Shown here: positions 810 to 61,373 of the stretch, piece after piece
Layout of the letters: each line of letters begins with the position of its first letter
How positions within the stretch are numbered: position 1 is the stretch's first letter
Assembly: GCA_965140785.1 (NCBI GenBank)
Contig: OZ223475.1
Location: 224,001 to 288,000, forward strand
Length of the DNA stretch: 64,000 nt
Origin: an uncultured Ruficoccus sp.
Lineage (GTDB): Bacteria; Verrucomicrobiota; Verrucomicrobiia; Opitutales; Cerasicoccaceae
Direction of reading: 5' to 3'
The notes under the pieces: model-generated
What the model was told of the DNA's origin: nothing
What the model saw: the letters and a program-made list of their open reading frames with translations, nothing else
Database searches by the model: none
Program-made: the position numbers and the translations under genes

Positions 810-959
810 ATGAATACCTCCCACGCCCTTATTGTTCGTTACGTCAAATCCAGAGGCTTCACCCTAGTTGAACTACTGGCGTGCGTTGCGATCAGTGGCA
901 TCTTGATTTTTGATGGACATGTGGAAGCATTTGGCCGCGAAGAAACGGGCCGTCAGTAA
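810..959 (+). CDS. 49-aa minimal prepilin-type protein (N-methylation motif fused directly to the DGHV tail); possibly an internal-deletion remnant
   Basis: Manual translation MNTSHALIVRYVKSRGFTLVELLACVAISGILIFDGHVEAFGREETGRQ*; below the ORF-track length cutoff. Confidence 0.7.
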   Translation: MNTSHALIVRYVKSRGFTLVELLACVAISGILIFDGHVEAFGREETGRQ

Positions 960-980
960 TCACTCAACCAAGCATTAGGA

Positions 981-2891
981 ATGCGCTTAATTACTTTTTG
1001 CCTGCTCGCACTGCTGGCTCACCCAATCGTCGCGGAAACGTGGTATGTTGACAATAGTACCGGTCAGGATGATTACACAGGTGTTGCACGGAACAAAGCC
1101 TTCGCCACGATTCAGCGAGCGGTGGATTCCGCACAACCCGGGGACACAATCCTGGTTGCGCCAGGGGTTTATCATGAGTTTGTTAAATGGAACCAATCCG
1201 GCTCTGCGGATGCCCCCATTACCCTGCGGGCCGAGTCGAGTGGTTGCTACGAAACCGTTTTGACCGGCGCAGACGAGTCGATACGTAATCAGCAAGTGAG
1301 TTGGGACTTGGTCGATAGCGACCTGGGTCTATACCGGGTGCCGTTCAAGTATCGTCCGGTTCGCGTCCTCGCTGACCGCGTTGACCTGCTTGCCTATCCG
1401 AACCTTGCGGATCTCAAGGCGCTACGATTCGTGGAAGATGACTATCCAGGGGTCGGTCATGGCTTTGCCTGGGACTCTGATACACAATCGCTGTACATCC
1501 GCCTTTACGCCGATGGCCGGTATGGCTCAAGTGATCCGAATGACCATGTTATCGCGGCAGCACCGCCTACGCCTGGTGGGCGATGGGGGCAGATACTGAA
1601 CCGCGATGACCACTTCCTCATCTCGATTTCGAATGACAAACCCGCCCATATCGTGATTGATGGCTTCACATTTGAAACGCCCGGATTCGCAGGAGTCGAC
1701 GCTTCAGCTGGTGAGGTTACCGTGCGCAACTCTTGGTTTTTCGGTTGCCGCTATGCAGTGGCAGGTGCCATGGATGGCTCGACCCCTAACGTCATCGTCG
1801 AGAATTGTTTCTACACCCAGTTTCCTGCCTTCACCGACTGCGCTGAAGTCATCTTCAAAGAAGCCAGCCAGCAGCGAGAAAAATCTGAATGGTGGCAGAA
1901 AATCATGCATTGGCAGCGAAAAGGGGGCTTCCCGCCAGGCACTCGCGGCATTGGATCGCCTTATGCTTACGAAACCGGATTGGTAAGCCGGATAGGAGAA
2001 AATTGGACTATTCAACGGAATTGGCTATGGGAAACTTTTGAAGGGTTTTCCGCTGGATCAGTCACGCAAAGCAAAGACTCACGCATCATTAATAACCGTA
2101 TTGAACGCGTTTGCGACAATGCCGTTGAATCGGAAAACCATGCGCAGAACCTTATTGTAGCCGGAAATCTGATTATCGATGCTTTCGAGCCGTTTTCTTG
2201 GCAGCCCTTGAACGGAAGCCCCCTGCCGGGACCCATCTATGTGTATGACAACATCGTGCTGCAAACGCCGGAAGCAACACGAATGTGGGAAACAACCGGC
2301 AATACGGGGGGGGCGGTCAAACTCGGCTGCAAGGACGATCGGAATTGGCAGAACGGTAAGATGGGAGACCTGCCTCGCGACGTCACCACTGCACCCGGAG
2401 GTTTCTGGTTTGCTCACAACACGATACTGGTTCCTCAGGGTAGATTGATTACCTCGCTCAATTCGCCAGGGCGGCGATACGAAGGCTTTTACCTGCTGAA
2501 CAATCTGGTCGCAACCAAGCAAGTTACGCAGGAATCCGCATTCGAGGAGATCGAGAGCATTTCCTTCCTCCATAATGCAGTTTGGTTTGCTGAAGAGACA
2601 ACAGACCGAGCGGAAGTCGCCGCCGGTGAAGGCGGCTGGGATTCGTCCACTCTGGCGCCACTCGCGATCGCCTGGTATGCGCTGGGCGCTAACGTTACCC
2701 AGTCCAATGAGCAGCCGCTGGACATCGGTCTGACCGATCGAAAGCTTTCAGCACCCGGTGCCGTTGCGACAACTGTTCCCGGAGAAATCCCACTTAGACG
2801 CACGGTTGGCGCACAGGCCTTTACGGGACCGGTTGGCCCCGAGGGTGCGCCCGAGCCCGAGTCGATTCTTTCAACAATCATCGTACCATGA
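981..2891 (+). CDS. Secreted right-handed parallel beta-helix protein (DUF1565-like N-terminus), putative glycan-active enzyme
   Basis: Signal peptide; WYVDNSTG..FATIQRAVDSAQPGDTILVAPGVY; Asn-ladder repeats (IERVCDNAVESE, GPIYVYDNI). Confidence 0.8.
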   Translation: MRLITFCLLALLAHPIVAETWYVDNSTGQDDYTGVARNKAFATIQRAVDSAQPGDTILVAPGVYHEFVKWNQSGSADAPITLRAESSGCYETVLTGADESIRNQQVSWDLVDSDLGLYRVPFKYRPVRVLADRVDLLAYPNLADLKALRFVEDDYPGVGHGFAWDSDTQSLYIRLYADGRYGSSDPNDHVIAAAPPTPGGRWGQILNRDDHFLISISNDKPAHIVIDGFTFETPGFAGVDASAGEVTVRNSWFFGCRYAVAGAMDGSTPNVIVENCFYTQFPAFTDCAEVIFKEASQQREKSEWWQKIMHWQRKGGFPPGTRGIGSPYAYETGLVSRIGENWTIQRNWLWETFEGFSAGSVTQSKDSRIINNRIERVCDNAVESENHAQNLIVAGNLIIDAFEPFSWQPLNGSPLPGPIYVYDNIVLQTPEATRMWETTGNTGGAVKLGCKDDRNWQNGKMGDLPRDVTTAPGGFWFAHNTILVPQGRLITSLNSPGRRYEGFYLLNNLVATKQVTQESAFEEIESISFLHNAVWFAEETTDRAEVAAGEGGWDSSTLAPLAIAWYALGANVTQSNEQPLDIGLTDRKLSAPGAVATTVPGEIPLRRTVGAQAFTGPVGPEGAPEPESILSTIIVP

Positions 2892-3655
2892 AGAAATCCC
2901 TCCTCATCACCTTCGTTGGATTCGCTTGCGCCTCTGCGGCGACCGCTGACCTTATTTGGTCGGCTGACTTCGAGTCCTATAATACCAAGCACGAGCCCGC
3001 ACCCTTGATCATCAATTCGTCCGGGAAAGACGACACGTTTACCGCGGTCTTACCTAATTCGCGAATGAAGGTAGGCGCATGTGAAGTTCGCTCTGATGGC
3101 TCGCCTTCATTCATGGATGGAAATGCGTTGTACCTTGAAGGCGATGTCATAGAGACGGGAAACGCTTCCCTCCGCATCCGGCAAAACAAGATGGATACGA
3201 TTAGCGGCGCCGGTGCGATTGTTATCAGCTTCGATGTTTATTGTCCCCATAAACCAGTATACAGCCTGATAGCTGAAGTGAACACCAACCAGGATGGCCG
3301 CACCGGGAGCATGCTCTATTCTCCCCAACCCAAGTCTGAGACGATAAGGGCCACCATCATAATCAATTGTACGTCAAATAGCCTGACCTTGCCGGGGGAT
3401 TTGGGGAGCCTGAACACGAATTCCTGCGCATTATATTTCTACGATGGAGTATCTTACAGCGGTCTGAAAATTTCAGATGGGGACGTTACCAGCTACGAGA
3501 TTTCGGGCTTTAGCGTCGGCCTGAGTCGCAGCAATTTTGAGAAGAACGACGTAGCCGAATTGTGGATTGATAATGTTGGCGTGTGGAATTCAATCGATGA
3601 CAGCATTTCGGGAACTTCCGTGCTAGAGCTTAAACCAGGCGTCGTCGTCAAGTAG
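2888..3655 (+). CDS. Secreted hypothetical protein, beta-sandwich-like
   Basis: 255-aa ORF with signal peptide, ATGA overlap with the upstream gene, C-terminal LWIDNVGVW. Confidence 0.65.
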   Translation: MKKSLLITFVGFACASAATADLIWSADFESYNTKHEPAPLIINSSGKDDTFTAVLPNSRMKVGACEVRSDGSPSFMDGNALYLEGDVIETGNASLRIRQNKMDTISGAGAIVISFDVYCPHKPVYSLIAEVNTNQDGRTGSMLYSPQPKSETIRATIIINCTSNSLTLPGDLGSLNTNSCALYFYDGVSYSGLKISDGDVTSYEISGFSVGLSRSNFEKNDVAELWIDNVGVWNSIDDSISGTSVLELKPGVVVK

Positions 3656-3735: not shown

Positions 3736-4401
3736 ATGTTACCCCCAACGAAATCGCTTGTTAGGCCCTCGGCTTTCCGTGCCGCATTCAGCTTGATCGA
3801 ACTGTTGGCGGTTTTGGCCGTGATCGGTGTTCTCGCCGCGATCCTTCTGCCCGTATTTTCACGGATCAAGGGGGACAGTCTGGGTATGTTAGCCACGGCC
3901 CAGATGCGCCAAATCAGCCAGGCCGTTTTTCTTTACGCGACTGAACATGACAACAACCTGCCCGGCCCGATGTACTCCGGTCAGGGCTTCCGCTTCAAGG
4001 ACGGACGCCCCCAGTTTCTGTTTTCGTCCATCGGGGTTTATTTGGACCAGAAAAAACCGACCTGGCGGTGGGAAGTCGCCGACCCGAGCTTCATGACCGC
4101 CCCGCAGCGCGATTTCTTTGAACAAGAGGGTGAAGATGCCACCTTCTACAGCATTAAGTCAGGCGGTGACGTCGTTCCCTTTGGTTATACGGTTTCCGGC
4201 GCTATGCCGATGAAACTCAATGCGATCGAAGACCCGGGTAAGGTGTTCATGCTCAGAGAGGTGGACCAGCAGGCAGCCTGGGTCTATTCCAGCTGGTCTT
4301 CCCGGACGCCACCTGAACCCCTGCACGGCAACTTTCGTCACATTTCTTACTTCGACGGCAGTGTAGAGGCACTGCCCCGATCCGACACCGATCAGCCCTG
4401 A
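3736..4401 (+). CDS. Prepilin-type N-terminal cleavage/methylation protein with H-X9-DG motif
   Basis: AFSLIELLAVLAVIGVLAAIL at the N-terminus; HGNFRHISYFDGSV at the C-terminus. Confidence 0.9.
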   Translation: MLPPTKSLVRPSAFRAAFSLIELLAVLAVIGVLAAILLPVFSRIKGDSLGMLATAQMRQISQAVFLYATEHDNNLPGPMYSGQGFRFKDGRPQFLFSSIGVYLDQKKPTWRWEVADPSFMTAPQRDFFEQEGEDATFYSIKSGGDVVPFGYTVSGAMPMKLNAIEDPGKVFMLREVDQQAAWVYSSWSSRTPPEPLHGNFRHISYFDGSVEALPRSDTDQP

Positions 4402-4424
4402 AGGCGGTCTTGTCCTTTACCTCC

Positions 4425-4589
4425 ATGATGAAGCTATTCTTCTTGGCCTTCCTGTGCCTGCTTACCGACTGTGAGGCGACCGTGACGACTTGGTACGTAA
4501 ATGGCAAAGGGTCTGCTGAGGCCAGCAGTCAAAGGCCCGGAGAGGCCTTCGCGACTATTCAGCGCGCTGTTGACATGGCCCAACAGGGT
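4425..4589 (+). pseudogene. N-terminal remnant of a DUF1565/beta-helix secreted protein
   Basis: Signal peptide plus TWYVNGKG..AFATIQRAVDMAQQG, homologous to the start of 981-2891; similarity stops abruptly at about 4589. Confidence 0.7.
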
Positions 4590-4590
4590 T

Positions 4591-4812
4591 ACTCCGTTTT
4601 TCATCGCTCACGGTACCGCGGACAAGACCATTCCGGTCGAGCGCTCCCGCCTGCTGGTGGAGTCCTTGAAAGACTTGGGAATCAAGTATGTTTACATCGA
4701 GGTGGAGGATGGTCCGCATTCCTTCAACCTGACGCCCGCCGGCCAGGATCTGCGGCCAGCGCTGCTGGATTTCCTGAAGGAGAACCTTGGCGAGCCACAT
4801 CAAAAATCCTAG
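4591..4812 (+). pseudogene. C-terminal remnant of an alpha/beta-hydrolase (esterase)
   Basis: TPFFIAHGTADKTIPVERS...EVEDGPHSF carries the catalytic Asp/His region; the N-terminal nucleophile part is absent. Confidence 0.7.
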
Positions 4813-4857
4813 TCAAAAAAACGCTCATTCTCGTATCAATCCCTATACTGACGCCCC

Positions 4858-5781
4858 ATGAAAAGCCGATTCCTGCCTCCCTGTTTTATCGCTATCATTA
4901 GCTTGTCGTTTTGTTCTGTCTTTGCCACCCCTGGATGGGCGCAGGACATTTCAACGGGCTTTGAAGACGGTAGCCTGTCTCCGTTCGGACTGGAGAGCCT
5001 TCCGGGAAACGTTTCCGAAGTTGTCACGCCGACGGGTTTCTCCGCGCGCGCCGGTAATAAGGTCAACCGCATCGTCTGGTACGCGGACAATTACGAGGGC
5101 GCACGCACGGGGCGGAGCGTCGAGGGCCAATCCTACAAACTCGACCGCATCACGAGCGAAGGTTGGTACGGCTTCAGCTTTTACGCCCCAGAATCCTTTC
5201 CCGTTCCGGACAAACGGATGGTGCTGGCGCAGATTATTGCCTGGGATCCCAGCTTACCCAATACGAACATTACCATCACGGTCGGCGTGAATGCGCTCGG
5301 TGCCCTCATCCTTGAAGGGGCGTATGGCGTGGGCGACGGTGCCAAAGATGTCAGCGTGTACACCCCGATTGCGCCCGTGTTGACCAAAAACACTTGGCAC
5401 GACGTGATCCTGTACTGCAACTTTTCGCGTGACAACACCGGTATCCTGCAAGCCTGGTATGACGGCGCTCCCGAGTCGTCCCCGACCATTTCGGCCACGG
5501 GTATCAACCTTGGCAATGGCGCGTGGACGGACGACAACACACTGACGACCGGGGGCTACATCAAATGGGGCCCCTACTGCTATGACAGTGCCAACTATGT
5601 GCCGGGCGAAAGCCGCGAGATTTACTACGATGAAATTTCGTACCTCGTGGGTAATCCCGAAGGGGCGTTCGACCTGGTCAAGGCAGAGGGCTACGGCACG
5701 ATCCCGGAGGGAAGCTCGACGCCTTTGATTCTTGCGCTCGCGGCTTTGCTGGTGGCTGTTTTGCCTCGGAGGGGTAAATAG
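4858..5781 (+). CDS. Polysaccharide-lyase-like (jelly-roll) secreted protein with a PEP-CTERM-like tail
   Basis: Signal peptide; WYGFSFYAP, VLAQI, WHDVIL, YIKWGPY, IYYDEI motifs; tail IPEG-hydrophobic-RRGK. Confidence 0.75.
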   Translation: MKSRFLPPCFIAIISLSFCSVFATPGWAQDISTGFEDGSLSPFGLESLPGNVSEVVTPTGFSARAGNKVNRIVWYADNYEGARTGRSVEGQSYKLDRITSEGWYGFSFYAPESFPVPDKRMVLAQIIAWDPSLPNTNITITVGVNALGALILEGAYGVGDGAKDVSVYTPIAPVLTKNTWHDVILYCNFSRDNTGILQAWYDGAPESSPTISATGINLGNGAWTDDNTLTTGGYIKWGPYCYDSANYVPGESREIYYDEISYLVGNPEGAFDLVKAEGYGTIPEGSSTPLILALAALLVAVLPRRGK

Positions 5782-48795: not shown

Positions 48796-50220
48796 CTAGA
48801 TCTTGCCGCGGCGGTCTTCCAGTTGCCCCCGGATGTCTTCCAGGTGGTGACGTGTCAGCGGGTACAGCAGGATGAGCCCCAGGGCGATCATCCAGATGAC
48901 GACCGGGGTTAAAATGAACATCCACTTCATGCGCAAGAGCACGTCCATGGGCTGTTGGGCCAGCAGCACATCGAAGCCCGACACTTCCAGCATCAGTCCA
49001 CCCGCGCCCAGGGCGAGGGTATGCGAGACTTTGAGAAACCAGGAGTAAAACGCGTTGAGGGAACCTTCGCGTCGGCGTCGGGTGTCCAGCTCGTCGTAGT
49101 CGGCGACGTCGGCCTTCATTGAGGGCATGAACAGCCAGAAGGCCGATATGCACCCGGCCTGGAGCGCGGCCGGGATCAGTTGCAGGTAGGGTAGCTGAGG
49201 ATTCAGGCAGAAATAGTACAGCAAATGCCCCACCATCCCGCTGATCAACACGGCAGCGACGAGAATCTTCTTGTCGAACTTCTGGCTCAGCCAGGTCAGT
49301 ACCGGCAGCGAGAGGAGGCCGACGATCACGATAGTGGTATGGCGCCACCCATCGACAATGGAAGCGTCGGCTATCTTCCCGCCGTTGACCAGGTAGATGT
49401 TCACGTACTGGCCCAGGCTGGTGACTGAGGAGTTCCCCAGGGTGAGGAAAAAAGTCGTACCGATCAGGAACCATAGTGGCTTGCAGCGGAACGACTCCTT
49501 GACACTCTGCCAGAGCGGATCGCGGGCCTGATGACTGGCCTCTTTTTTGTAATAGCGCTCCTTGACGAATAAGGCTGGGATAATCCCAAAGATCATGATC
49601 AGGACGAGGAGGAACCAACTGCAGGTGCGAACGCCATGCACGATGTCCGCCTCGCCCGTTTCCGGATTGGTGAACCATGGGCCGGTGACGATGGCCATCG
49701 TCCAGCCGCCGATCAGTGTCATCACCTTGCCGAAAAAGGCCATCCACGCCGCCAGACGGGTACGCTCGTCGTAGTTGGGCGTGAGCTCCATCTGAAGCGC
49801 GTTGTAGGGCATGGACCAGCAGGTGAAACTGGTGTAGAAGAGCCAGCCGACGAACAGCAGGTAAAAGAATATGCCCATCTCGTCCCAGCCGGCAGGCGGC
49901 CGCCACAGAAAGGGGTAGACCGCAGCAGTCAGGATCGCCCCGACAAAAATGAAGGGGCGGCGTCGGCCCCAGCGCGTGCGGGCATTGTCGGAGATGTTGC
50001 CCATTACCGGGTCGGAGATCGCGTCCCAGGCCCGCAGGATCATCAGGCACAGGGCCAGCAGCCCGGGATTGACCTTTAGGCCGATGTTGAAATACGGCAT
50101 CCACAGCATGTTCAGCGTGATGTAGGTGGCGAAGTAGTCCATCTTTCCCCCGATGGCGAAAGCGATCTTCTGCCAGAACGGGATGCGGTCGGCTTCGGGA
50201 ATGTGACGTTGGCGGGTCAT
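48796..50220 (-). CDS. GPH-family MFS sugar:cation symporter, paralogue of 24848-26272
   Basis: Same length (474 aa) and long identical blocks, e.g. WDAISDPVMGNISDNARTRWGRRRPFIFVGAILTA. Confidence 0.93.
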   Translation of the reverse strand: MTRQRHIPEADRIPFWQKIAFAIGGKMDYFATYITLNMLWMPYFNIGLKVNPGLLALCLMILRAWDAISDPVMGNISDNARTRWGRRRPFIFVGAILTAAVYPFLWRPPAGWDEMGIFFYLLFVGWLFYTSFTCWSMPYNALQMELTPNYDERTRLAAWMAFFGKVMTLIGGWTMAIVTGPWFTNPETGEADIVHGVRTCSWFLLVLIMIFGIIPALFVKERYYKKEASHQARDPLWQSVKESFRCKPLWFLIGTTFFLTLGNSSVTSLGQYVNIYLVNGGKIADASIVDGWRHTTIVIVGLLSLPVLTWLSQKFDKKILVAAVLISGMVGHLLYYFCLNPQLPYLQLIPAALQAGCISAFWLFMPSMKADVADYDELDTRRRREGSLNAFYSWFLKVSHTLALGAGGLMLEVSGFDVLLAQQPMDVLLRMKWMFILTPVVIWMIALGLILLYPLTRHHLEDIRGQLEDRRGKI

Positions 50221-52523: not shown

Positions 52524-52659
52524 GTCCTCGGTCGAAATTATTGCGACCCTTTTGAAATAACCCTTCAACTTGCAAATGCGAATCCAAAAGTAACACTTTC
52601 CTAACTTTTGAAGGAGTTCGATGTTGAGTGTAGTATGCCGACAAGCTATAATCAAGCCC

Positions 52660-54609
52660 ATGAAAGTACCCTATTACCTCCTGATTGCACTTCTGTTATC
52701 CTTGTTCCTCCCGATGGGTTCCCCGCTCCATGCACAGTCTGTATTCGACATATCCGGTAGCGGCGGAAAATTTGATGTGTCTGGCAGTTGGATTGTTATT
52801 TCCGGCACGGACACGGTTCCGGACGCGACAAGTGACGTCACGATCATGGGGACCGATGGCGTGACAGCTGACGCCTCCATTACGGTCAATGACTACACGA
52901 GTGATTCGCTCGCCAATCTCGTTTACGGAACGGCTTCTGCTGGCACCGATATTGACCGCACGATTATTTTTCGTGGAACCGCCAGCGCAGATCGTTTGCT
53001 GGCCATCGGCGGAGACGTGACAAAGTATGACAGCGGCCTGCTGGTCTTCCGCAACAACGTCAGTACTAATACCTCTTTGCTCAACGTCACTGTCGCCGGT
53101 AACGTTACCGTGCATGATGGCGAGCTTGCCTTCGGGAGTAACAATCACGGTTTAAATTCAATTGCGGTCAGTGGTACGACCACGCTTCATGGCGGCGAGT
53201 TGAGCCTGTGTCTGAATACCGACGCGAATCTGGGTGCGCTGGTGGTGAACGGCGGCGCTTTGAATCTGAACTACGCGGAGTTGTCTGGCGGTAACAAGAA
53301 CCGGACCATCAACGTGAGAAACCTCAACGGTACCGGTGGTACCATCACGGAGGATAGCACCGGGACAGCTGCGGTTTACACCCTGGCGATCACCGGTGAC
53401 GATGCGGCGGATTACTCGGGTACGATCACCAACGGAACCGGCACCGGGACGGTCGCTTTGCTCAAGTCCGGCAGCGGGCAGCAGGTGCTCTCTGGTGAAA
53501 ACACTTATGCCGGAGGCACCACTGTGACGTCGGGCTCCTTGCTGGTGAGTAACACCAGTGGCAGCGGTGTCGGCACTGGCGCGGTGCTGGTGCAAGATGG
53601 CGGCACCTTCGGCGGGAGTGGCAGGGTCCGCCTTGGTGAGGCCAACAGCATAACGGTCGAGGCCGGGGGATGGATCGCAGCCGGTGGAGAGGGCTCGCCG
53701 CTGGTGCTGGATGGAGGCGATTCGACCGAAAGCATTCTGATCATGGAGGAAAATGCCGGGTTTACTTTTGACCTCAGCGGTGAAGCTCCCCTGGTCGAGT
53801 TTTGGAACTATGAGGACAACACGGATTTTGTGCTGAATGACAATGTCATCGACTTTATCAACGCCGAGGAGGGTGTGTATACGCTTTTCGCCTTCTACTC
53901 TGATGACGGTTCGACCCTTGCCGAGAGCAACGTTGCCTCGGGCCTCGTTCTGGGGTCAGGACTGGAAGGCTATGATGTCGATCTTGTATACGGCGAGAAT
54001 ACCATAACGTTGACATTGGCCGCTGTCCCTGAGCCTGGGGCGTTCGCGATGCTTCTCGGGGCCGGAACCATGGGCGCAACCTTGGTCTGGAGGCGCAGAA
54101 GGAAGCAAACGGCGGTAACAAAGACGGCGTTCTTGCGGAAAGTCTTACCAGTTATGGTGCTGATCCTGGGAATCCCCCTGACCGGCAAGGCGGACCCCAC
54201 AATCGGGAATGCGAGTTTTGAAAACGGCTTGGAGGGGTGGAATCCCAAGGGCCAGACCGTGGAGGTTCATTCCGGCGACGCCGCCGACGGTGAAAAAACG
54301 GCCTACCTTAATTTCACGGGCAAGAACAGCCTCGTGAAGATGCTAACAAAAATCGACGGACTGGAAGAGGGCAAAACCTACAAACTGAGCTTCCAGTCGC
54401 GGGGGGCAACAGCCGAAGACCTTCGGGTGGTTCTGCGCAATCTCGAGACCAACAAATACATTACCTCCCGCAAGGCCGTCACGGGTCCGGCGTGGGAGGA
54501 AACGACGATGGAGTTCAAGGCACCCGCGGCTCAAGTGGGGCTGGAGATCAGAATAGCATCACCCGGGGTGTGCGAATTCGACCACTTCCAAATCAGCCCG
54601 GCCAATTAA
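52660..54609 (+). CDS. Autotransporter-associated beta-strand repeat protein with an internal PEP-CTERM and C-terminal CBM4/9-like domain
   Basis: LLKSGSGQQVLSGENTYAGGTTVTSGSL; VPEPGAFAMLLGAGTMGATLVWRRRRK at 54025-54105; then NASFENGLEGW...GKTYKLSF...FDHFQI. Confidence 0.85.
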   Translation: MKVPYYLLIALLLSLFLPMGSPLHAQSVFDISGSGGKFDVSGSWIVISGTDTVPDATSDVTIMGTDGVTADASITVNDYTSDSLANLVYGTASAGTDIDRTIIFRGTASADRLLAIGGDVTKYDSGLLVFRNNVSTNTSLLNVTVAGNVTVHDGELAFGSNNHGLNSIAVSGTTTLHGGELSLCLNTDANLGALVVNGGALNLNYAELSGGNKNRTINVRNLNGTGGTITEDSTGTAAVYTLAITGDDAADYSGTITNGTGTGTVALLKSGSGQQVLSGENTYAGGTTVTSGSLLVSNTSGSGVGTGAVLVQDGGTFGGSGRVRLGEANSITVEAGGWIAAGGEGSPLVLDGGDSTESILIMEENAGFTFDLSGEAPLVEFWNYEDNTDFVLNDNVIDFINAEEGVYTLFAFYSDDGSTLAESNVASGLVLGSGLEGYDVDLVYGENTITLTLAAVPEPGAFAMLLGAGTMGATLVWRRRRKQTAVTKTAFLRKVLPVMVLILGIPLTGKADPTIGNASFENGLEGWNPKGQTVEVHSGDAADGEKTAYLNFTGKNSLVKMLTKIDGLEEGKTYKLSFQSRGATAEDLRVVLRNLETNKYITSRKAVTGPAWEETTMEFKAPAAQVGLEIRIASPGVCEFDHFQISPAN

Positions 54610-54627: not shown

Positions 54628-55269
54628 ATGACTTACCCCCCTACGTGCCGCCGGCGAATCGCCTGGATGGGTTTTTCGTTAGTGGAATTGCTCGTTGTCC
54701 TCGCTGTGCTCGGCGTTGTGGCGTCCCTGTTTTTTCCCGCCCTCAGAAAAGTCCATGCCCGGGCCAATCAGTCTGCCTGTGCGGCGAATCTGCGCCAGAT
54801 CGGGACGGCTGTGCTCCTCTATGCCGGGGATAACCATGGCCAACTGCCCGGGCCCCTTTACAACGGTCAGGGCAAGAGCGGAGGCGGACAACTGGTAACC
54901 TTTCTGGAGCCTTATCTGAATGTCGCACCGGGTGACGAAGCAGGGGACTTGTTCGAGTGCCCAGCCTGGGTCGAGGCCGCCGAAGGTCGTGAGGAACTCC
55001 GGCGTCCTTACTACATGCTGCCCATCATATGGACGGATGGCTCCCTTATCCGACCTTTTGGTTATCCCTCACAAAATGACCCGCTTCGTCTCCAGCAAAT
55101 CCCCGACCTTTCCGCGGTGCAGGCGATCATTGATTTTGACCGGGGCGTCAGTAGCTCGAGTTCGGCGATTGAGGAACCGGTCCACGATTCAAGCCGCAAC
55201 GTTCTCTTTTTCGATGGCCACGTCGATACCATTCCCGTGTCGGAATGGACGTTTCCCAGACCCAGATAA
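54628..55269 (+). CDS. Prepilin-type N-terminal cleavage/methylation protein with H-X9-DG motif
   Basis: GFSLVELLVVLAVLGVV; CAANLRQIG; HDSSRNVLFFDGHV. Confidence 0.92.
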   Translation: MTYPPTCRRRIAWMGFSLVELLVVLAVLGVVASLFFPALRKVHARANQSACAANLRQIGTAVLLYAGDNHGQLPGPLYNGQGKSGGGQLVTFLEPYLNVAPGDEAGDLFECPAWVEAAEGREELRRPYYMLPIIWTDGSLIRPFGYPSQNDPLRLQQIPDLSAVQAIIDFDRGVSSSSSAIEEPVHDSSRNVLFFDGHVDTIPVSEWTFPRPR

Positions 55270-55467
55270 ATAGCGAGCGCATGTCACCGACTCCGTACCT
55301 TCTGCTGCCACTTGGGCATGTTTTCAACCGACCTGCGTTCAAGCTCCGGCGCCTCTCCATCTCTCCTTTGGGGAAGGGGATACTACCTCGTTTAATGGAT
55401 GTCTAGCTAACATCCGTTTCTTATCTTTTCAGGGATCCTTTCCTTTCACATTACCGATATATTTTTG

Positions 55468-57216
55468 ATGACTAAGCATTGTTTTGTTTTTTGCGTCCTG
55501 CTGTTCAGCTTGCAAGTTCCCGAGCTTGCGGCGACGGTATACTCGGTGGCTCCCGGACCGGCGGAGGCGATTTCCGAGGCCTTCGCCAAGGCTAAGCCCG
55601 GTGACACCATCCAGCTTTTGCCGGGCGTCTATACCGGCACGGTAGAGGTGAGCGTATCCGGTGCGCCTGATCAGCCCATTATACTCTCGGGGCTGGACTG
55701 GGGGGAGGAGGAGAAAGCGGTCATTGACGCCGGGGGCGGCCCCGCCCGGAAGGCGGACTACCCGGCCATCCGTTTTCGAGATGCCCACTGGATTACCGTT
55801 CAGGATATCGAAGTCGTCAATGCCTGGTCCGACGTTTTCCAGATTAAGGATTCCAGCTATATATCGATCCGTGGCTGCGATGTCGCGGGCGGAACGACGG
55901 TGGTCGCCGCGCACGGCACCGGTTCCCACCATATTCTGGCCGAAGATTGTACATGGGAGCAGGAGAAAGGCGCGTATCTGGATTTGGATTGGGCCGAGAT
56001 GCACCATGGCGATCTCGTCTACCTGAATGGTGGCTTTTACGGGGGCACGGACAGTGCAGGCGGTGCTGTCATCCGCTACAATGACATCGGATACGCCTTC
56101 AACGGCCTGCGCTGGTGGCTGAACGACGCGGCGACCCAGGCCCGGCAGGCGCAGAGCAATATTGAAATTTATGATAATTATTTTCATCACGTGCGCGACA
56201 ACATGATCGAACCCGAGCGGTTCACCTGGAACCTGCATGTTTACCACAACCGACTTAACTCATGTGCCAAGGGCGCGGTTTCCATCGACGGGGTTACCGG
56301 AGGCGAGATATTCTTCTACGGCAACACAGGGCTTTGGGCGCGGGATGGGGCTGATGATTATCGTCCCTGGACGGTCTATAAATTCAACGATTATGAGCGG
56401 AAACCCCATTTGGACTACCCGTTCTACATCTTCAATAATAGCTGGTCCTATGCGACGGCGTTTGTCCGGGGCTCCAAGATGCGCAAGGCCAACGATCATC
56501 TCCGGCACTTTAACAATGCCTATGTCTTTGTGGAGGAAGGCTATCACTTCGGCCTGGTGGATTGGGCCGGGCAGGACTGCCAGTTCGATTACGACATGGC
56601 CGCCGCGCCCTGGGATCAAGATGTAGTGGACGCCGGATACGAAGAGCACGGGTTTCCCGATACCAACCCGGGTTTTCAGTCGGTGGAGGCGGACGACTTC
56701 CGCCTGGCAGCCGAGAGCCCGGCCCGCGATAAGGGTACGGTGATCGACGACTTCCACCTGTGGTATCTGGGAGACGGCCCGGACATCGGCGCCTATGAGG
56801 GGGAGCAGCGGGTCTACGGATTACCCTTCGTCTATCGTGAACCGCCCGGAGGCGGGCTCTATCAGGAAATGCCACGCATCGTTCGTGTATTCGAGTATGG
56901 TAATAAACTGGTCGCCTTTTTTTCCTCCCCCCTCGACCCAGAAACGTTGACACCGGAGCGTATCCTGCTCAAGGCCGGTGATGAGGCGCTCACGATCCTT
57001 TCGGCAGAAATTCCCGCCGAAGATTATCCACAGGCAGTGGTGCTGACATTGGACGAGATACCGGCAGCGCGCGAAGTCGAGTTTCAATTCGATCCGGCGC
57101 TGCTTGGCGCCAACGGCCAGCCGGTCACGACATGGGCGGGCGATACCCGCCTGGTGCAGATTCCTCCGGAGGCCACGCTTGTCGGTCCTATGAAGGCGAT
57201 ACTGGAGCAAAACTGA
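55468..57216 (+). CDS. Secreted right-handed beta-helix protein, putative polysaccharide lyase/hydrolase
   Basis: AKPGDTIQLLPGVY; IYDNYFHHVRDNMIEPE; DFRLAAESPARDKG..PDIGAYE. Confidence 0.8.
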   Translation: MTKHCFVFCVLLFSLQVPELAATVYSVAPGPAEAISEAFAKAKPGDTIQLLPGVYTGTVEVSVSGAPDQPIILSGLDWGEEEKAVIDAGGGPARKADYPAIRFRDAHWITVQDIEVVNAWSDVFQIKDSSYISIRGCDVAGGTTVVAAHGTGSHHILAEDCTWEQEKGAYLDLDWAEMHHGDLVYLNGGFYGGTDSAGGAVIRYNDIGYAFNGLRWWLNDAATQARQAQSNIEIYDNYFHHVRDNMIEPERFTWNLHVYHNRLNSCAKGAVSIDGVTGGEIFFYGNTGLWARDGADDYRPWTVYKFNDYERKPHLDYPFYIFNNSWSYATAFVRGSKMRKANDHLRHFNNAYVFVEEGYHFGLVDWAGQDCQFDYDMAAAPWDQDVVDAGYEEHGFPDTNPGFQSVEADDFRLAAESPARDKGTVIDDFHLWYLGDGPDIGAYEGEQRVYGLPFVYREPPGGGLYQEMPRIVRVFEYGNKLVAFFSSPLDPETLTPERILLKAGDEALTILSAEIPAEDYPQAVVLTLDEIPAAREVEFQFDPALLGANGQPVTTWAGDTRLVQIPPEATLVGPMKAILEQN

Positions 57217-57223
57217 CTCTACG

Positions 57224-58561
57224 ATGATTATGGAAACACCAACGAACAGGCAGAAATCGCATACGATGACATCTCCCTCTGTGGACGAACCCGAGCGCCG
57301 GACCCCGGTGGTCGGAGAGTATGATGTGATCGTGGCCGGAGGAGGTCCGGCTGGCTTGGCAGCGGCTGTGGCAGCTGCGCGGCTTGGGGCAAAAACGAAG
57401 TTGATTGAACAGGCTGGATGCCTGGGGGGAGTCTGGACCTCTGGCCTGTTGAGCTGGGTGCTGGACTCCGAGAACAAGACCGGCCTGATGGCGCAGATCC
57501 GTCGCACACTCAGCGATCATGGGCAGGCGCGATTCAAGAACCGCGGATTTACCTATGATCCGGAGCACATGAAAGCTTTCGTAGAGGCGCTTTGCCTGAG
57601 CACCGGCGTTGATATCCGATTGCATACGCAGATCTGCGACGTGATCAGCAACGACCAAGGCGCTCTGGATGCCGTGATTACGGAATCGAAGTCCGGTCGC
57701 GAAGCCTGGCGGGCGCAGGTTTTCATCGACGCCACGGGCGACGGTGATCTCGGCGCACGGGCAGGCTGCTCTTTTGAGGTGGGGCGGCCGGGAACCGGCG
57801 AAGTCCAGCCGATGACCTTGGTGGCGCTTGTTTGCGGTGTGCCGCCCGAAGCGATCCGTCCTTTTATCGGAGGGGGGAGCAAGCCCGCCAAAGCGGCGCT
57901 GTTCGAGGAATTTCGTCGGGCGGGGATCACGCCCAGCTATGCTTCGCCTACCTTGTTTTATATCCGGGACGATCTGTATGCGCTTTCCGCCAACCACGAG
58001 TATGGCGTCCAAGCCATGGATGCGGACGGGATTACCCGAGCCACCCTGCACGCCCGTGAAGAGCTTAACCAACTGGTGGCAGCCTTGCAGAAATTGGGTG
58101 GTCCGTGGACCGGCCTGCGCCTGCTGGCCACCGCCCCGCAAATCGGCGTGCGGGAAGGCAGACGTCTCAAGGGCCTCTATACGATTACCGGCGATGACAT
58201 CGTGGCGGGGCAACGTCATGATGACGCGATCTGCGAGTGTGGTTTTGGCATCGATGTGCACTCCACCAATCCATCAACCTCGGCTGATTACAGCACCGAG
58301 AACAAAACGCCGGCGAAGCCCTATGACATTCCCTTGCGCGCTCTGATTGCCGCCGATGTGGATCGGTTGTTGCTGGCGGGGAGGTGCATCAGCGGGGATT
58401 TTCTCGCCCATGCCAGCTACCGGGTAACAGGCAATGCCATTGCCATGGGAGAGGCGGCCGGTGTTCTCGCCGCTGTTGCTACCCGCCGGGGAACCTCCCC
58501 GCGAGAGGTACCATGGAAGGAGTTCATGGGGGCTCGCGACGAGCTTTTAACCACGGCCTGA
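57224..58561 (+). CDS. FAD-dependent oxidoreductase
   Basis: DVIVAGGGPAG, FIDATGDGD, GVREGRR, YDIPLRAL, LLAGRCIS. Confidence 0.9.
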   Translation: MIMETPTNRQKSHTMTSPSVDEPERRTPVVGEYDVIVAGGGPAGLAAAVAAARLGAKTKLIEQAGCLGGVWTSGLLSWVLDSENKTGLMAQIRRTLSDHGQARFKNRGFTYDPEHMKAFVEALCLSTGVDIRLHTQICDVISNDQGALDAVITESKSGREAWRAQVFIDATGDGDLGARAGCSFEVGRPGTGEVQPMTLVALVCGVPPEAIRPFIGGGSKPAKAALFEEFRRAGITPSYASPTLFYIRDDLYALSANHEYGVQAMDADGITRATLHAREELNQLVAALQKLGGPWTGLRLLATAPQIGVREGRRLKGLYTITGDDIVAGQRHDDAICECGFGIDVHSTNPSTSADYSTENKTPAKPYDIPLRALIAADVDRLLLAGRCISGDFLAHASYRVTGNAIAMGEAAGVLAAVATRRGTSPREVPWKEFMGARDELLTTA

Positions 58562-58605
58562 GTATCAACGGCAGGCTTGTCATTTTTACCCGTATCAAAT
58601 AATCG

Positions 58606-59853
58606 ATGAAATCTCCACAGAGGGTTGCCGTCGCCGGAATCGGCGGATTCAGCACCAGTCACCATCACGCACTGCGCGAATTGGAGGCCGAGGGTGTCGT
58701 TCAGGTCGTAGCGGCCTGCGACCCCCGCCATCACCAGCTCGAGGATCGCAAGGCACTTCTGGATTTTTCCGGACGAAACGTAGCCGTTTTTGAAGATTTT
58801 CACGAAATGCTGGACAGCGGCGCTTACGATTGGATCTCATTGGCAACGCCCATCTCCCTGCACGCTTCCATGCATGCTTCCTGTGTCGAACGCCAGCTGC
58901 CATGCTACCTGGAGAAACCGCCTACGCTCGACCCCTGTGAATTGGAAAAGATGATAGCCACGGACGCGGGGGCCAGCCGGCAAACTCAGGTCGGGTTCAA
59001 CTATGTGTATGAGCCCGAGCGCTTACAGCTTAAGAAGCGCTTGCTCGCCGGCGAATTCGGAGCGCTGCGCGAGATCAGTTTCCGGGGCGCGTGGCGGCGT
59101 GCTCAGGCCTACTACCGGCGCAACGACTGGGCGGGCCGTCTGCAACACCGTGACACGCTGCTGCTGGATTCCTGCATGGGCAACGCCATGTCGCACTACG
59201 TCCATAACATTCTGTTCATGGCGGGTGTATCGCGCATGGACTCCTGGGGCCACTGTCGTCGGGTTGAGGCGCAGCTTTTTCGTGCCAATCCGATCGAAAG
59301 TGCGGACACGGTCTTTGTGAGAGGCGAATTGGACGATTCCATCAAAATCCGCCTCGCCCTGACACACGCGTGTGAAGCCGAAAAGGTGATGGTGGAAAGT
59401 CTCGTCTGTGATGATGCGCTCATCCAGTTAATTCCACAGAAGCGGATCGACATAAAATTCTCAAATGGGATTCATGAAACGATTCAGGTTGCACCTCGCA
59501 ATTACCTGAAGGAGAACTTTCGTTTGTTCGGTCAATACGTGGCAGGAAGCACGGAGGGCTTGCTCGGCACACTGGCGCATTGTCGCCCCTTCGTACAGCT
59601 CAATGCCCTGGCTTTCCTTTCAACCGGGAGCATACACGAGGTGATGCAGCCGGTTAGCGAATTCATCGCGCCGGGTAGCTACTGGCGAATCCCGGGGATC
59701 GAAGCTCTTCTGGAAGAGTTTGTGAAGACCGGAGACTTTTCGATACTACATTCTTTGGGGAACCCCTGCGTATCATCCCGCCCAGTGTCTCCGACGGAGC
59801 TGGTTCAGCTTCGAGAGGCAATCTCTGGGATTTCGCAATTGGTGGCCGACTGA
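58606..59853 (+). CDS. Gfo/Idh/MocA family oxidoreductase
   Basis: VAGIGGF, YLEKPP, YYRRNDWAG, NAMSHY, FRANPIESADT. Confidence 0.88.
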   Translation: MKSPQRVAVAGIGGFSTSHHHALRELEAEGVVQVVAACDPRHHQLEDRKALLDFSGRNVAVFEDFHEMLDSGAYDWISLATPISLHASMHASCVERQLPCYLEKPPTLDPCELEKMIATDAGASRQTQVGFNYVYEPERLQLKKRLLAGEFGALREISFRGAWRRAQAYYRRNDWAGRLQHRDTLLLDSCMGNAMSHYVHNILFMAGVSRMDSWGHCRRVEAQLFRANPIESADTVFVRGELDDSIKIRLALTHACEAEKVMVESLVCDDALIQLIPQKRIDIKFSNGIHETIQVAPRNYLKENFRLFGQYVAGSTEGLLGTLAHCRPFVQLNALAFLSTGSIHEVMQPVSEFIAPGSYWRIPGIEALLEEFVKTGDFSILHSLGNPCVSSRPVSPTELVQLREAISGISQLVAD

Positions 59854-59924
59854 CAACGATTCTAGTCCTGGTCTCCTTCCCATAACGGTGAGGGATTCTC
59901 CGATTACATGAACCACAGAGCACA

Positions 59925-61373
59925 ATGGACAGACCTCATATTATATTAATCAATGTCGATCAATGGCGTGGCGACTGCCTGGGGATCGATGGCCATCCGA
60001 CGGTCGGCACCCCTTATCTTGATCAGCTGGCACAGGGTGGGGCTCGGTTCAGCCGGGCGTACTCCGCGACTCCGAGCTGCATCCCGGCCCGGGCGGCATT
60101 GCATACCGGTTTGACGGCACGTTCGCACGGTCGGGTCGGCTACAAGGACGGTGTAGCCTGGAACTATCCGGTGACGATGGCGGGCGAATTCAGCCGTCAT
60201 GGCTATCAGACCCAGGCCGTCGGCAAGATGCACGCCTACCCGGAACGGGAGCGGCTCGGCTTCGACCATGTTGAGCTGCACGATGGGTATATGCATTTCG
60301 GCAGAAATCGGGAACGGCCATTGGAATTCGTGGACGACTACCTGCCCTGGCTCCGTGAGCGCTTTGGCGCGGACGCCGACTATTTCGAACACGGACTGAA
60401 CTGCAACTCGCTGGTCGTGCGACCCTGGGACAAGCCGGAGCACCTCCATCCGACGAATTGGGTCGTTACCCGGTCGATCGATTTCCTGCGCCGGCGGGAC
60501 CCGCGCAAGCCGTTCTTTTTGTTTATGTCTTTTCATCGGCCGCATCCACCGCTCGATCCGCCTGCCTGGGCCTATGAACAATTTTTGGATGTGGAGATGC
60601 CCGATCCTCCGTTGGGTGATTGGGTCGACCTCTTTAAGGGGCTTGAGGAGCCTTACCGGGCCGATCGCTATGTGGGTATGCTCAAGCCTGACGCGCTACG
60701 CCGGGCGCGTGCTGGCTACTATGGTCACTTGCTTCACATCGACCATCAAATCAACCGCTTTCTGGAATCACTTCAGGAGTTTAATTTGCATCAGGACTGT
60801 TACATCTGTTTTGTTTCCGATCACGGCGAAATGCTGGGCGACCATCATCTGTACCGCAAATTTCTCCCCTATGAAGGCTCGGCGCGCGTTCCCCTGCTTC
60901 TGAAAGGGCCTCGCGGCTGCGGCATTCGGAGTGGTTCTCAGCATGAGGCGCCTGTTGAAATGCGTGATGTGATGCCGACTCTGCTCTCCTGTGCGGGGCT
61001 ACCTGTCCCCGATTCCATCGAGGGGCGCAGTTTCCTTCCCTTGGCCAGGGGAGAGGATGTGGACTGGCGTGCTTATCTTCACGGAGAGCATATCAGTCAC
61101 GGGGATTCCTCCACGCAGTGGCTCACCGACGGACATGAAAAGTATATATGGTTCAGTCAATGGGATCGCGAACAACTCTTTAATCTGGATGACGACCCGC
61201 AGGAGCTTCGGGATCTCAGCCATGAGCGTCCGGATCGGGTGGCGCATTGGCGTCAATGCCTCATCGCCGAGCTGCGAAATCGAGAAGAGGGATTTGTGGA
61301 AGGTGAAAAGCTTGTCGCAGGTCGGCCTCAGCATGCTTGCCTGTCCCATATTTTGCCGCCTGCTACCTCATGA
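59925..61373 (+). CDS. Formylglycine-dependent (S1) sulfatase, cytoplasmic
   Basis: PHIILINVDQWRGD, CIPARAALHTG (CxPxR), GKMH, SDHGEMLGDH; no signal peptide. Confidence 0.93.
   Translation: MDRPHIILINVDQWRGDCLGIDGHPTVGTPYLDQLAQGGARFSRAYSATPSCIPARAALHTGLTARSHGRVGYKDGVAWNYPVTMAGEFSRHGYQTQAVGKMHAYPERERLGFDHVELHDGYMHFGRNRERPLEFVDDYLPWLRERFGADADYFEHGLNCNSLVVRPWDKPEHLHPTNWVVTRSIDFLRRRDPRKPFFLFMSFHRPHPPLDPPAWAYEQFLDVEMPDPPLGDWVDLFKGLEEPYRADRYVGMLKPDALRRARAGYYGHLLHIDHQINRFLESLQEFNLHQDCYICFVSDHGEMLGDHHLYRKFLPYEGSARVPLLLKGPRGCGIRSGSQHEAPVEMRDVMPTLLSCAGLPVPDSIEGRSFLPLARGEDVDWRAYLHGEHISHGDSSTQWLTDGHEKYIWFSQWDREQLFNLDDDPQELRDLSHERPDRVAHWRQCLIAELRNREEGFVEGEKLVAGRPQHACLSHILPPATS

Follow-up and report, generated by a model that had tools for sequence, protein, structure and literature searches.

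Repeated polysaccharide-utilization-like loci with their own prepilin-type and PEP-CTERM envelope proteins in an uncultured Ruficoccus sp.

Glycan Loci With Envelope Genes of Their Own

The stretch of DNA analyzed here (the window) comprises 64,000 nucleotides, positions 224,001 to 288,000 of contig OZ223475.1, from an uncultured Ruficoccus sp. of the Verrucomicrobiota (assembly GCA_965140785.1; 4.36 Mb, 50 contigs, 59% GC). The window contains four modules that are regulator-controlled catabolic operons resembling polysaccharide utilization loci (PULs), and these modules have envelope genes of their own in a repeated and conserved architecture. It is well supported that the envelope genes of each locus encode a prepilin-type subunit, which is either a small pilin or a giant protein that, as GspK, is devoid of the glutamate at position 5 (Glu5), and usually an anchored PEP-CTERM protein with an ectodomain of the carbohydrate-binding type. 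The most likely mechanism, which we give a probability of about 0.45, is that these proteins form a substrate-specific capture module in the cell envelope that is assembled by machines shared among the loci.

A selection of 52 open reading frames (ORFs) of the window was scanned against Pfam and 20 of them against NCBIfam, and their translations were read. An initial annotation of the window had described four modules with a pilin-type gene, a PEP-CTERM tail, and glycan-active genes, and these contents were recovered with small corrections. Module 1 (0.8-5.8 kb) contains a beta-helix protein, a 255-aa secreted protein, a pilin, a gene fragment, and a PF14099 lyase. Module 2 (18.2-30 kb, minus strand) contains a PEP-CTERM protein, the giant, and a 260-aa secreted protein, beside which lie genes for LacI, MFS_2, Gfo, GDSL, and beta-helix proteins. 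Module 3 (30.8-42.2 kb) encodes two large secreted proteins, LacI, Gfo, a PEP-CTERM protein, a pilin, a GH114-like protein with an F5/8 type C domain, and an SSF symporter, and module 4 (48.8-61.4 kb) encodes a GPH symporter, a divergent AraC regulator, an ORF that combines PATR, PEP-CTERM, and CBM_4_9, a pilin, a beta-helix protein, an FAD oxidoreductase, Gfo, and a sulfatase. The identical order of PEP-CTERM protein, pilin, and enzyme that had been claimed for two modules is that of modules 3 and 4, with gaps of 34, 12, and 24 bp along the PEP-CTERM, pilin, GH114-like, and SSF genes of module 3 and of 18 and 195 bp along the PEP-CTERM, pilin, and enzyme genes of module 4. A Gfo/Idh/MocA gene was likewise found in or beside each module (at 26303, 36141, 43357, and 58606, together with one that overlaps the start of the window), and three modules hold a transporter and a regulator, as annotated (MFS_2 and LacI, SSF and LacI, GPH and AraC). 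The glycan-active enzymes of the window are the PF14099 lyase, the GH114-like protein with its F5/8 type C domain, a GDSL esterase, a sulfatase, and four beta-helix proteins, three of which score below the Pfam cut-off of 25.9 (22.7 for 981-2891 and 25.2 for 55465-57216). Consistent with the initial annotation, no TonB receptor, secretin, or pilus ATPase was found among the 52 ORFs, and Pfam detected neither a SusC-like TonB-dependent transporter nor a SusD-like lipoprotein among them.

The statement that every module encodes a PEP-CTERM surface protein held for modules 2 and 3, in whose proteins (22703-23608 and 37431-38117) the P-E-P motif, the transmembrane helix, and the basic cluster are readable. 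In module 1 the tail is located on the lyase itself, and in module 4 it is internal to a 662-aa ORF.

Co-location and Conservation of Pilin and PEP-CTERM Genes

Genes of the genome were called by a simple codon-usage model of our own (3322 genes, 80% coding), which recovered the window genes except one beta-helix ORF. A search for the class III motif yielded 52 pilin-like genes, and one for a tail pattern yielded 82 PEP-CTERM genes. Sixteen of the 52 pilin-like genes lie in five clusters, one of which is the canonical type II secretion operon; the other 36 are solitary, 32 of them with a terminal xDG[HS]. The 32 pilins that were tested are a subset, because a profile search of the genome gave 60 pilin matches, including clustered genes and some with stops.

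The co-location of pilin, PEP-CTERM, and carbohydrate-active enzyme (CAZyme) genes, for which a comparison with chance had been proposed, exceeded the expectation from both random gene sets and random loci. A PEP-CTERM gene was present within one gene of 10 of the 32 solitary pilins (mean 1.5 and maximum 6 in 5000 draws of random sets of 32), within three genes of 18 (random mean 4.3, maximum 11), and directly upstream on the same strand of six (random mean 0.44); counting the 662-aa ORF of module 4, which escaped the tail pattern, would raise the directly upstream cases to seven. For the glycan test, the two nearest genes on each flank of the 32 pilins (127 genes) were compared with those of 32 random centers (128 genes; two further random centers were dropped), and genes were counted as glycan-active if they matched a glycoside hydrolase (GH), polysaccharide lyase, carbohydrate esterase, sulfatase, or carbohydrate-binding module (CBM) family of Pfam at E<=1e-5. 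A glycan-active neighbor within two genes was found at 19/32 pilin loci and 5/32 random loci (one-sided Fisher p 3e-4), and two of the five positive random loci themselves adjoin solitary pilins. Under a strict definition that removed three loci resting only on GDSL, BNR, or PIG-L, 16/32 pilin loci were positive (p 3.5e-3). At the level of genes, 29/127 were glycan-active around pilins and 5/128 around random centers.

Within the same taxonomic family, a profile built from the 32 paralogues gave between 20 and 69 matches in each of the larger genomes. Forty pilin-centered windows of 10.6 kb from five genomes of three other genera were compared with 39 control windows shifted by 50 kb, one control being missing because its contig was too short for the shift; seven of 47 matches were left out, four with overlapping windows and three expected on short contigs (two on contig C32 of genome G011, one on C19 of G009). 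A PEP-CTERM ORF was present in 23/40 pilin-centered and 10/39 shifted windows (p 3.9e-3), and in 8/40 pilin-centered windows it stood directly upstream of the pilin on the same strand. Furthermore, the module 3 cassette of Gfo, PEP-CTERM, pilin, GH114-like, and SSF genes kept its order in two other genera, with identities of 77/67, 57/44, 57/54, 63/60, and 80/73%, respectively. In five further cases, database matches to the module 3 partner and pilin lay on contigs of equal size, two of them under 6 kb. The cassette orthologues carry the names Ruficoccus, Cerasicoccus, and Rubellicoccus, in keeping with a genome of the Puniceicoccales type. A search for related loci with the GH114-like protein returned one distant locus only (L143). 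A cobalamin riboswitch (RF00174) before a pilin/PEP-CTERM pair was not found, as the single genome match scored 29.1 bits against a cut-off of 31.5 and had no such genes downstream.

Small Pilin-Like Proteins

All three small pilins of the window carry the class III signal G/A-F/L-S-L-I/V-E-L-L, pass the TIGR02532 model (23.1-26.8 bits, cut-off 16.3), and match the profile of the 32 paralogues at E<=1e-47. Their assignment as three H-X9-DG pilins was correct for 3736-4401 and 54628-55269, which contain the strict motif, but not for the second (38152-38793), which has G in place of H (GDGKAVALFLDGH). The 32 paralogues share about 25% mutual identity, and in their alignment Glu5 is invariant and Phe1 nearly so. 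They have in common a helix signature (SNLRQIG..A...Y), a CP motif, and a C-terminal RH.G..N.LF.DGHV, a combination that reads as the DUF1559/H-X9-DG pattern. Signal, helix signature, and C-terminal motif are all shared with the DUF1559 (PF07596)/H-X9-DG (TIGR04294) family of Planctomycetota, Verrucomicrobiota, and Lentisphaerota, although the copies in the window, at 213-221 aa, are short and score under the curated cut-offs of both models. At E<=1e-3, TIGR04294 matched seven paralogues in the genome and none of the three window pilins. PF07596 gave a score, below its cut-off, for 54628-55269 only (16.7 bits, cut-off 23.3). The nearest Atlas clusters combine N_methyl with SBP_bac_10 and are mostly verrucomicrobial. 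The GspG model TIGR01710 gave 23.4-31.4 bits for the window pilins against a cut-off of 88.85, over the N-terminal 55 residues only.

A structure model of 38152-38793 (pLDDT 80) predicts a 50-residue N-terminal helix (residues 11-61) followed by an alpha-beta head. The best 16 rows of a VIA search with this model were all pilins or pseudopilins at Z 3.5-6.0, including PilA4 (6.0) and EpsG (5.5). The support for a pilin fold is modest, because Foldseek against the PDB returned nothing at E<=1e-3. The head of this pilin keeps many aromatic residues among its orthologues, which would be compatible with a sugar-binding surface.

PEP-CTERM Partners and Anchored-Protein/Pilin Fusions

The PEP-CTERM partner of module 3 (37431-38117) is predicted to have a fold like that of a carbohydrate-binding module. 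Foldseek matched the model of its ectodomain to CBM9 (1i82_A, E 6.4e-5) and to 7nwo (2.4e-4), and five rows of the VIA search reached Z 10-11.8 over an Ig-like background of about 7, with CBM9 1i82_A at Z 10.1. The matching folds comprise CBM9, CBM74/Sas6, a putative carbohydrate-binding protein of Bacteroides, and DOMON-like haem subunits; the Pfam family CBM9_1 had no match in this protein. The other PEP-CTERM partners contain Laminin_G_3, CBM_4_9, or CBM96, and most are without a Pfam family.

The longer relatives found with the paralogue profile number 27 proteins, of which 21 were read and 12 were scanned against Pfam. In 16 of the 27, one ORF encodes a signal peptide, an ectodomain, a PEP or PxPL motif, a hydrophobic helix, a basic stretch, a class III signal, and a DUF1559-type pilin, with the canonical VPEP in four of the 16. 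The order, anchor and then pilin, matches that of the window cassettes, and such a single-ORF fusion is feasible because the anchored protein ends, and the pilin leader begins, in the cytoplasm. F5/8 type C or galactose-binding-like modules form the C-terminal part of a few other long relatives, which are pilins whose signal is N-terminal and in which the match covers only about one fifth of the profile.

Many of the fused precursors have an N-terminal ectodomain starting with EDPWADAV.xY and an anchor with PxPL in place of PEP. This PxPL anchor, to judge from the translations, may be an undescribed variant of the C-terminal sorting signal that always precedes a pilin.

The 662-aa ORF of module 4 (52621-54609) has a complete PEP-CTERM (aa 468-493) followed by RRRRK, and then continues in frame with a second hydrophobic anchor and CBM_4_9. 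It follows the same logic as the fusions, with a CBM_4_9 protein replacing the pilin. At the paralogous locus L025, the PEP-CTERM and CBM_4_9 proteins are separate, overlapping ORFs. The ORF may be a natural two-in-one precursor, or it may have lost a stop codon.

The PEP-CTERM/exosortase system described in PMC1569441 has the same PEP motif, transmembrane helix, and basic tail, with many copies per genome and exosortases present. That system was linked in its description to exopolysaccharide production, whereas here a subset of the proteins is encoded in catabolic loci beside pilins, and some of the tails are on enzymes, such as the PF14099 lyase.

Giant Pseudopilin-Like Family

The protein that had been described as a PilX-like giant (18962-22663, minus strand) does have a pseudopilin-like N-terminus (GFALIISL), but no Pfam or NCBIfam match at E<=0.01 ties it to PilX. 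At least 13 full-length paralogues (1035-1277 aa) join the window copy in a family of at least 14, and an N-terminus GFAL(I/V)..L.LMAF without Glu5 is common to the 14 giants whose N-termini were read. A gene for a protein of 218-270 aa follows 12 of the 14, and neither giant nor follower belongs to a Pfam or NCBIfam family; one paralogue of the 260-aa partner in the window (18190-18972) adjoins another giant (C39:78809). GspK of this genome is encoded by another gene (374 aa). A glycan-active gene was found within three genes of 12 of the 13 giant paralogues outside the window (L144-L156), and the neighboring families include GH39, GH26, GH4, GH71, GH88, GH130, GH2, sulfatases, lyases, and CBM96. 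The window giant has only the PEP-CTERM gene, LacI, and the transporter within three genes.

Shared Machinery Elsewhere in the Genome

The initial annotation had proposed that the pilin and a surface lectin of each locus plug into a type IV pilus or type II secretion system (T2SS) shared by all loci. The machinery part of this proposal is borne out, as a prepilin peptidase, a Gsp operon, PilT ATPases, secretins, and exosortases are all encoded elsewhere in the genome, and the plugging-in itself is weighed below. Peptidase_A24 has one genome match, secretins have five, and the exosortase family PF09721 has four matches that represent three genes. The T2SSE family has seven matches, three of which pass the PilT/PilU model. 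The GspG-H-K-D-E operon encodes a GspG (116.8 bits, cut-off 88.85) together with GspH-like and GspK-like proteins, a GspD-like secretin, and a GspE-like ATPase.

The TonB barrel PF00593 has two matches in the genome and SusD (PF07980) has one, and one of the barrels lies together with the only SusD on the 44-kb contig C9. This SusC/SusD-like pair was considered as evidence that would undermine a SusCD-free reading and was rejected; the contig has 39% GC compared with 59% for the genome, almost no genes were called on it by the caller trained at 59% GC, and it is probably a contaminant.

Features of the Window

Table 1. Positions of the genes discussed in the window and the evidence for their assignment.
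Feature	Position	Strand	Evidence
Gfo/Idh/MocA-like, 3' part of gene	1..720	+	407 aa, starts 503 bp before the window; blastp to same-genome Gfo genes E 2e-55 to 1e-151; window part alone without Pfam match
Secreted right-handed beta-helix protein (module 1)	981..2891	+	Signal peptide; weak Pfam: Chondroitinase_B N-terminus 2.6e-5, Beta_helix 8.1e-5, DUF1565
255-aa secreted protein, directly upstream of pilin 1	2888..3655	+	No Pfam/NCBIfam family; without PEP-CTERM tail
Pilin-like protein 1, AFSLIELL, H-X9-DG present	3736..4401	+	N_methyl 4e-4; TIGR02532 24.9 bits vs 16.3; paralogue profile E 2.4e-51
Probable pseudogene remnant between pilin and lyase	4410..4901	+	Beta-helix-like N-terminus (TWYV...FATIQRAVD..AQ.G), then out of frame; no Pfam/NCBIfam family
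Polysaccharide lyase PF14099 with PEP-CTERM-like anchor	4858..5781	+	Polysacc_lyase 2.6e-18; tail IPEGSS-hydrophobic-RRGK (PEG variant), by regular expression only, no HMM match
260-aa secreted partner gene, downstream of giant	18190..18972	-	Translation; gene context of giants
Giant pseudopilin-like protein, 1233 aa, GFALIISL, without Glu5	18962..22663	-	No Pfam/NCBIfam match
PEP-CTERM protein, 301 aa, directly upstream of giant	22703..23608	-	Tail IPEPQE-hydrophobic-RWRRRS, by regular expression
LacI-family regulator (module 2)	23751..24767	+	Pfam
MFS_2/GPH sugar transporter (module 2)	24848..26272	-	MFS_2 2.8e-67
Gfo/Idh/MocA oxidoreductase (module 2)	26303..27682	-	Pfam
GDSL esterase domain protein, overlaps next ORF in another frame	27570..28964	-	Lipase_GDSL_2 2.8e-20
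Beta-helix protein, implausible translated ends	28702..29979	-	Beta_helix 4.4e-9
Two secreted proteins (341 aa; 1058 aa with C-terminal F5/8 type C), start of module 3	30758..34928	+	Pfam, translations
LacI-family regulator (module 3)	35027..36076	+	Pfam
Gfo/Idh/MocA oxidoreductase, first gene of conserved cassette	36141..37295	+	Pfam; syntenic orthologues 77%, 67% identity
PEP-CTERM protein, 228 aa, predicted CBM9/DOMON-like beta-sandwich ectodomain	37431..38117	+	Tail IPEPGH-hydrophobic-RRRRRRS; model pLDDT 76
Pilin-like protein 2, GLSLIELL, FLDGH motif without H of H-X9-DG	38152..38793	+	N_methyl 26.4 bits vs 21.2; model pLDDT 80
Secreted GH114-like hydrolase with F5/8 type C	38806..40209	+	Glyco_hydro_114 2.5e-8; F5_F8_type_C 9.4e-10
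Sodium:solute symporter, last cassette gene	40234..42225	+	SSF 3.7e-17; syntenic orthologues 80%, 73% identity
GPH-family sugar:cation symporter (module 4)	48796..50220	-	TIGR00792 9.4e-54
AraC-family regulator, two HTH_18 units, divergent from cassette	50838..52661	-	Pfam
662-aa ORF: signal peptide, PATR, PEP-CTERM (aa 468-493), second anchor, CBM_4_9	52621..54609	+	PEP-CTERM 22.8 bits vs 20.7; CBM_4_9 3.9e-13; TIGR02595 17.6 bits vs 16
Pilin-like protein 3, GFSLVELL, H-X9-DG present	54628..55269	+	N_methyl 21.2 bits, SBP_bac_10 weak; paralogue profile E 1.9e-54
Secreted beta-helix protein	55465..57216	+	Beta_helix 1.5e-5, just under cut-off
FAD_oxidored protein, Gfo/Idh/MocA, sulfatase (end of module 4)	57224..61373	+	Pfam

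The fragment at 4410-4901 is probably what remains of an enzyme gene that had been duplicated. The GDSL and beta-helix ORFs of module 2 (27570-29979, minus strand) overlap by 263 bp in different frames and may represent a frameshifted fusion gene or a sequencing error. In module 4, the ORF 48773-50305 (minus strand) was rejected as a wrong frame, the real gene being the GPH symporter identified by NCBIfam at 48796-50220 on the same strand.

Other genes lie between and beside the glycan modules. The region 6159-12409, which encodes an Rrf2 regulator, an O/P-type porin, SBP_bac_11, two permeases, and an ABC ATPase with TOBE, has the predicted gene content of an anion uptake operon of the sulfate or molybdate type. 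The genome is rich in sulfatases (31 matches). Modules 1 and 2 are separated (12886-17213) by a transposase-like HTH_32 ORF and a 1178-aa RHS/YD-repeat protein. Directly past the sulfatase of module 4 (61588-63999, minus strand) are genes for a B12-binding corrinoid protein, a URO-D-like protein of the methyltransferase type, and an AraC regulator, which could provide a corrinoid-dependent demethylation step for methylated sugars.

Comparison With Published Systems

The modules share with the SusC/SusD PULs of Bacteroidota an organization into regulator-linked, substrate-specific loci with enzymes, a binding-type surface protein, and an uptake component, repeated within a genome. In contrast to those PULs, the window holds no TonB-dependent transporter or SusD, and its marker pair consists of prepilin-type and PEP-CTERM proteins. 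PUL-like units without SusCD have been described in metagenome-assembled genomes of Verrucomicrobiota with the outer-membrane route as an acknowledged gap (PMC8857213), and the words pilin and PEP-CTERM are absent from the text available for that study. In planctomycetes, a sister phylum that is also without SusCD, gold-labeled dextran was located on pili-like fibers of crateriform structures, which were proposed to bind and bring in whole polysaccharides (PMC5394234). Fibers were seen there and no genes were named (the word pilin occurs 0 times in the available text), whereas the system of the window is known from genes alone. Pilin-like "fishing rods" is the wording of a review (PMC12078418).

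The closest published case is Verruconatronum alginivorum (PMC13274419), the only work touching on this architecture in searches of the literature on pilin/PEP-CTERM/CAZyme loci in Verrucomicrobiota, in which no DUF1559 paper, judged by title or abstract, dealt with CAZyme loci. This member of the Opitutales has an alginate-induced operon of lyases and an SSF symporter with a pulG-like pseudopilin, pgaptmp_000050, a PILIN-signal protein of about 250 aa that has 67 paralogues and is induced by its substrate only. According to Table S3 of that paper, this pseudopilin made up 0.513% of the proteome with alginate as substrate and 0 with mannose or sucrose, and the adjacent 000049, a protein with a signal peptide and a single transmembrane helix, 0.168, 0, and 0 on alginate, mannose, and sucrose (PMC13274419). 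Core T2SS proteins were similar on alginate and sucrose (GspG 0.064 and 0.035), and 21 of 30 PILIN rows (of 89) were undetected on all three substrates (PMC13274419). Substrate-specific induction has been shown by others in a relative (PMC13274419). Unlike in the window cassettes, the pilin comes first there and the anchored protein follows; the term PEP-CTERM is absent from the main text (PMC13274419). The genome-wide co-location test, the fusions, and the giant family reported here were not found in the available parts of PMC13274419.

Glycan uptake in Akkermansia through MUL1/MUL2 is also verrucomicrobial and involves pilus-type proteins, namely PilM and a pilin-like protein (PMC13174399). 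MUL2 is a single conserved locus, whereas the cassettes described here are repeated and substrate-specific (PMC13174399), and the only family-level link is a weak secretin match to the Amuc_1098 family (38 bits vs. 750). Type IV pili of Streptococcus sanguinis are a precedent for glycan-binding modular minor pilins on a fiber (PMC9934059). However, S. sanguinis is monoderm and has one pilus locus with the lectin within the pilin, whereas here the binding-type domain is mostly on the adjacent protein (PMC9934059).

Possible Function of the Pilin/PEP-CTERM Pair

In the proposed capture module, the substrate would induce the locus, and the single prepilin peptidase of the genome would cleave the pilin-like subunit. 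The T2SS or type IV pilus machines encoded elsewhere, which would be constitutive, would then assemble the subunit into a short fiber or pseudopilus, and an exosortase would free the PEP-CTERM partner from its membrane anchor. Pilin and partner would together hold the polymer by the co-secreted enzymes and pass the products to the symporter of the locus, a role like that of SusD. The SusD part of the analogy to SusC/SusD is plausible; the SusC part has no support yet. A more far-reaching version, in which pilus-based capture and import replace SusCD in bacteria of the Planctomycetes-Verrucomicrobia-Chlamydiae (PVC) group, would combine a major pilin-like subunit of each locus, or a giant tip subunit, with the released binding protein, the two being encoded side by side or even in a single fused precursor. 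A constitutive machine of secretin, assembly ATPase, and PilT would extend and retract the fiber, which would drag the polymer to or through the outer membrane for "selfish" uptake. This version is unlikely.

Gene content, statistical co-location, synteny, fusions, folds, and the presence of the machines are direct observations, and a number of points weigh against the capture module built on them. Fiber assembly, glycan binding, contact between pilin and partner, and any role in outer-membrane passage are what we infer, and genes were called, motifs defined, and Pfam families classed as glycan-active with hand-made rules. The structural matches of the pilin are modest (Z at most 6 and no Foldseek match at E<=1e-3), and the DOMON-like fold to which the partner of module 3 is related includes haem-binding subunits, the top row of its VIA search being 2ivf_C at Z 11.8. 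No glycan gene was recognized within two genes of 13 of the 32 pilin loci, one of which (L026) is surrounded by housekeeping genes; moreover, only 16 of the 82 PEP-CTERM genes are partners within two genes of a solitary pilin. Among 16 pairs, the similarity of pilin heads was unrelated to that of partner ectodomains (Spearman's rho 0.03, reached in 1934 of 5000 permutations), although one co-duplicated pair stands out. Finally, the export of neighboring enzymes fits most of the same data, and the authors of the V. alginivorum study, which has one replicate per condition, propose that the T2SS exports the alginases (PMC13274419).

According to this export explanation, the locus pilins are alternative T2SS pseudopilins that act as adaptors for the secretion of the co-encoded enzymes and of exosortase-released PEP-CTERM proteins, and have no role in capture or import. 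Orthologues are indeed named "type II secretion system protein" and "general secretion pathway protein G" at NCBI/JGI, the best NCBIfam match is GspG even if it covers no more than the first 55 residues, the best structural matches include EpsG and PulG, most neighbors are signal-peptide enzymes that need to pass the outer membrane, and a complete GspG-H-K-D-E operon is present in the genome. However, that operon has its own GspG, which reaches 116.8 bits against the cut-off of 88.85 that the solitary pilins, at 23-31 bits, do not approach. In V. alginivorum, the induced pilin is about 8 times as abundant as GspG and 5 to 25 times as abundant as the lyases that it would export (PMC13274419). 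Loci L002 and L023 hold transporters and regulators with no recognized secreted enzyme within two genes, the three PilT-family retraction ATPases of the genome are dispensable for secretion, and neither the fusions nor the tight pairing with non-enzymatic proteins of binding type would be predicted from a piston role. Capture is favored over secretion because of this binding-type pairing, the fusions, the excess of the induced pilin over GspG and the enzymes in the published proteome, and the retraction ATPases, and the secretion adaptors, though a serious contender, appear somewhat unlikely. A role without any fiber is more doubtful still. The pilin-like proteins would then remain anchored in the inner membrane and work in the periplasm, binding oligosaccharides for the symporter, sensing, or acting as chaperones of their partners, which would suit the Pfam family name SBP_bac_10, the inner-membrane symporters of the cassettes without a binding protein of their own, the fused forms that put both proteins in one membrane with both domains periplasmic, and the high abundance in V. 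alginivorum (PMC13274419). On the other hand, Glu5 and Phe1, which are needed for processing and assembly and not for anchoring, show no or almost no variation across the 32 paralogues, whose mutual identity is about 25%, the fold is like that of pilins and unlike that of periplasmic binding proteins, and the SBP_bac_10 matches are confined to the helix region, the initial 30 to 70 positions of the profile. Chance proximity of two very large families (52 pilin-like genes, 82 PEP-CTERM genes) to CAZyme genes, which are abundant, or hitch-hiking of these families in variable regions, is a very improbable explanation. The abundance of all three kinds of gene, the PEP-CTERM ORFs in 10 of 39 shifted control windows of relatives, and the missing signal of pairwise co-evolution over 16 pairs speak for chance; the observed PEP-CTERM co-location was reached in 0 of 5000 random draws, random loci were comparatively poor in glycan genes, synteny is kept across genera at 44-57% identity, the fusions retain the same order, and co-induction has been published (PMC13274419).

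Implications for Polysaccharide Use in Verrucomicrobiota

Recalcitrant glycans of algae and hosts, sulfated ones included, have major degraders in the Verrucomicrobiota and Planctomycetota. For these phyla, the results turn the vague idea of pilin-like fishing rods into named and testable genes, with about 30 or more locus-specific pilins per genome. Many of these pilins adjoin anchored proteins, the recognizable ectodomains among which are all of the binding type, and the giants form a second family of subunits. If the pair works in capture or import, this would be the first functional context for the DUF1559/H-X9-DG and PEP-CTERM proteins, which are among the largest uncharacterized families of PVC bacteria, and annotators could use the two together to recognize PUL-like loci in these phyla. 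The pilins and their partners thus represent concrete candidates for the handling of polysaccharides without the classical outer-membrane import pair of Bacteroidetes.

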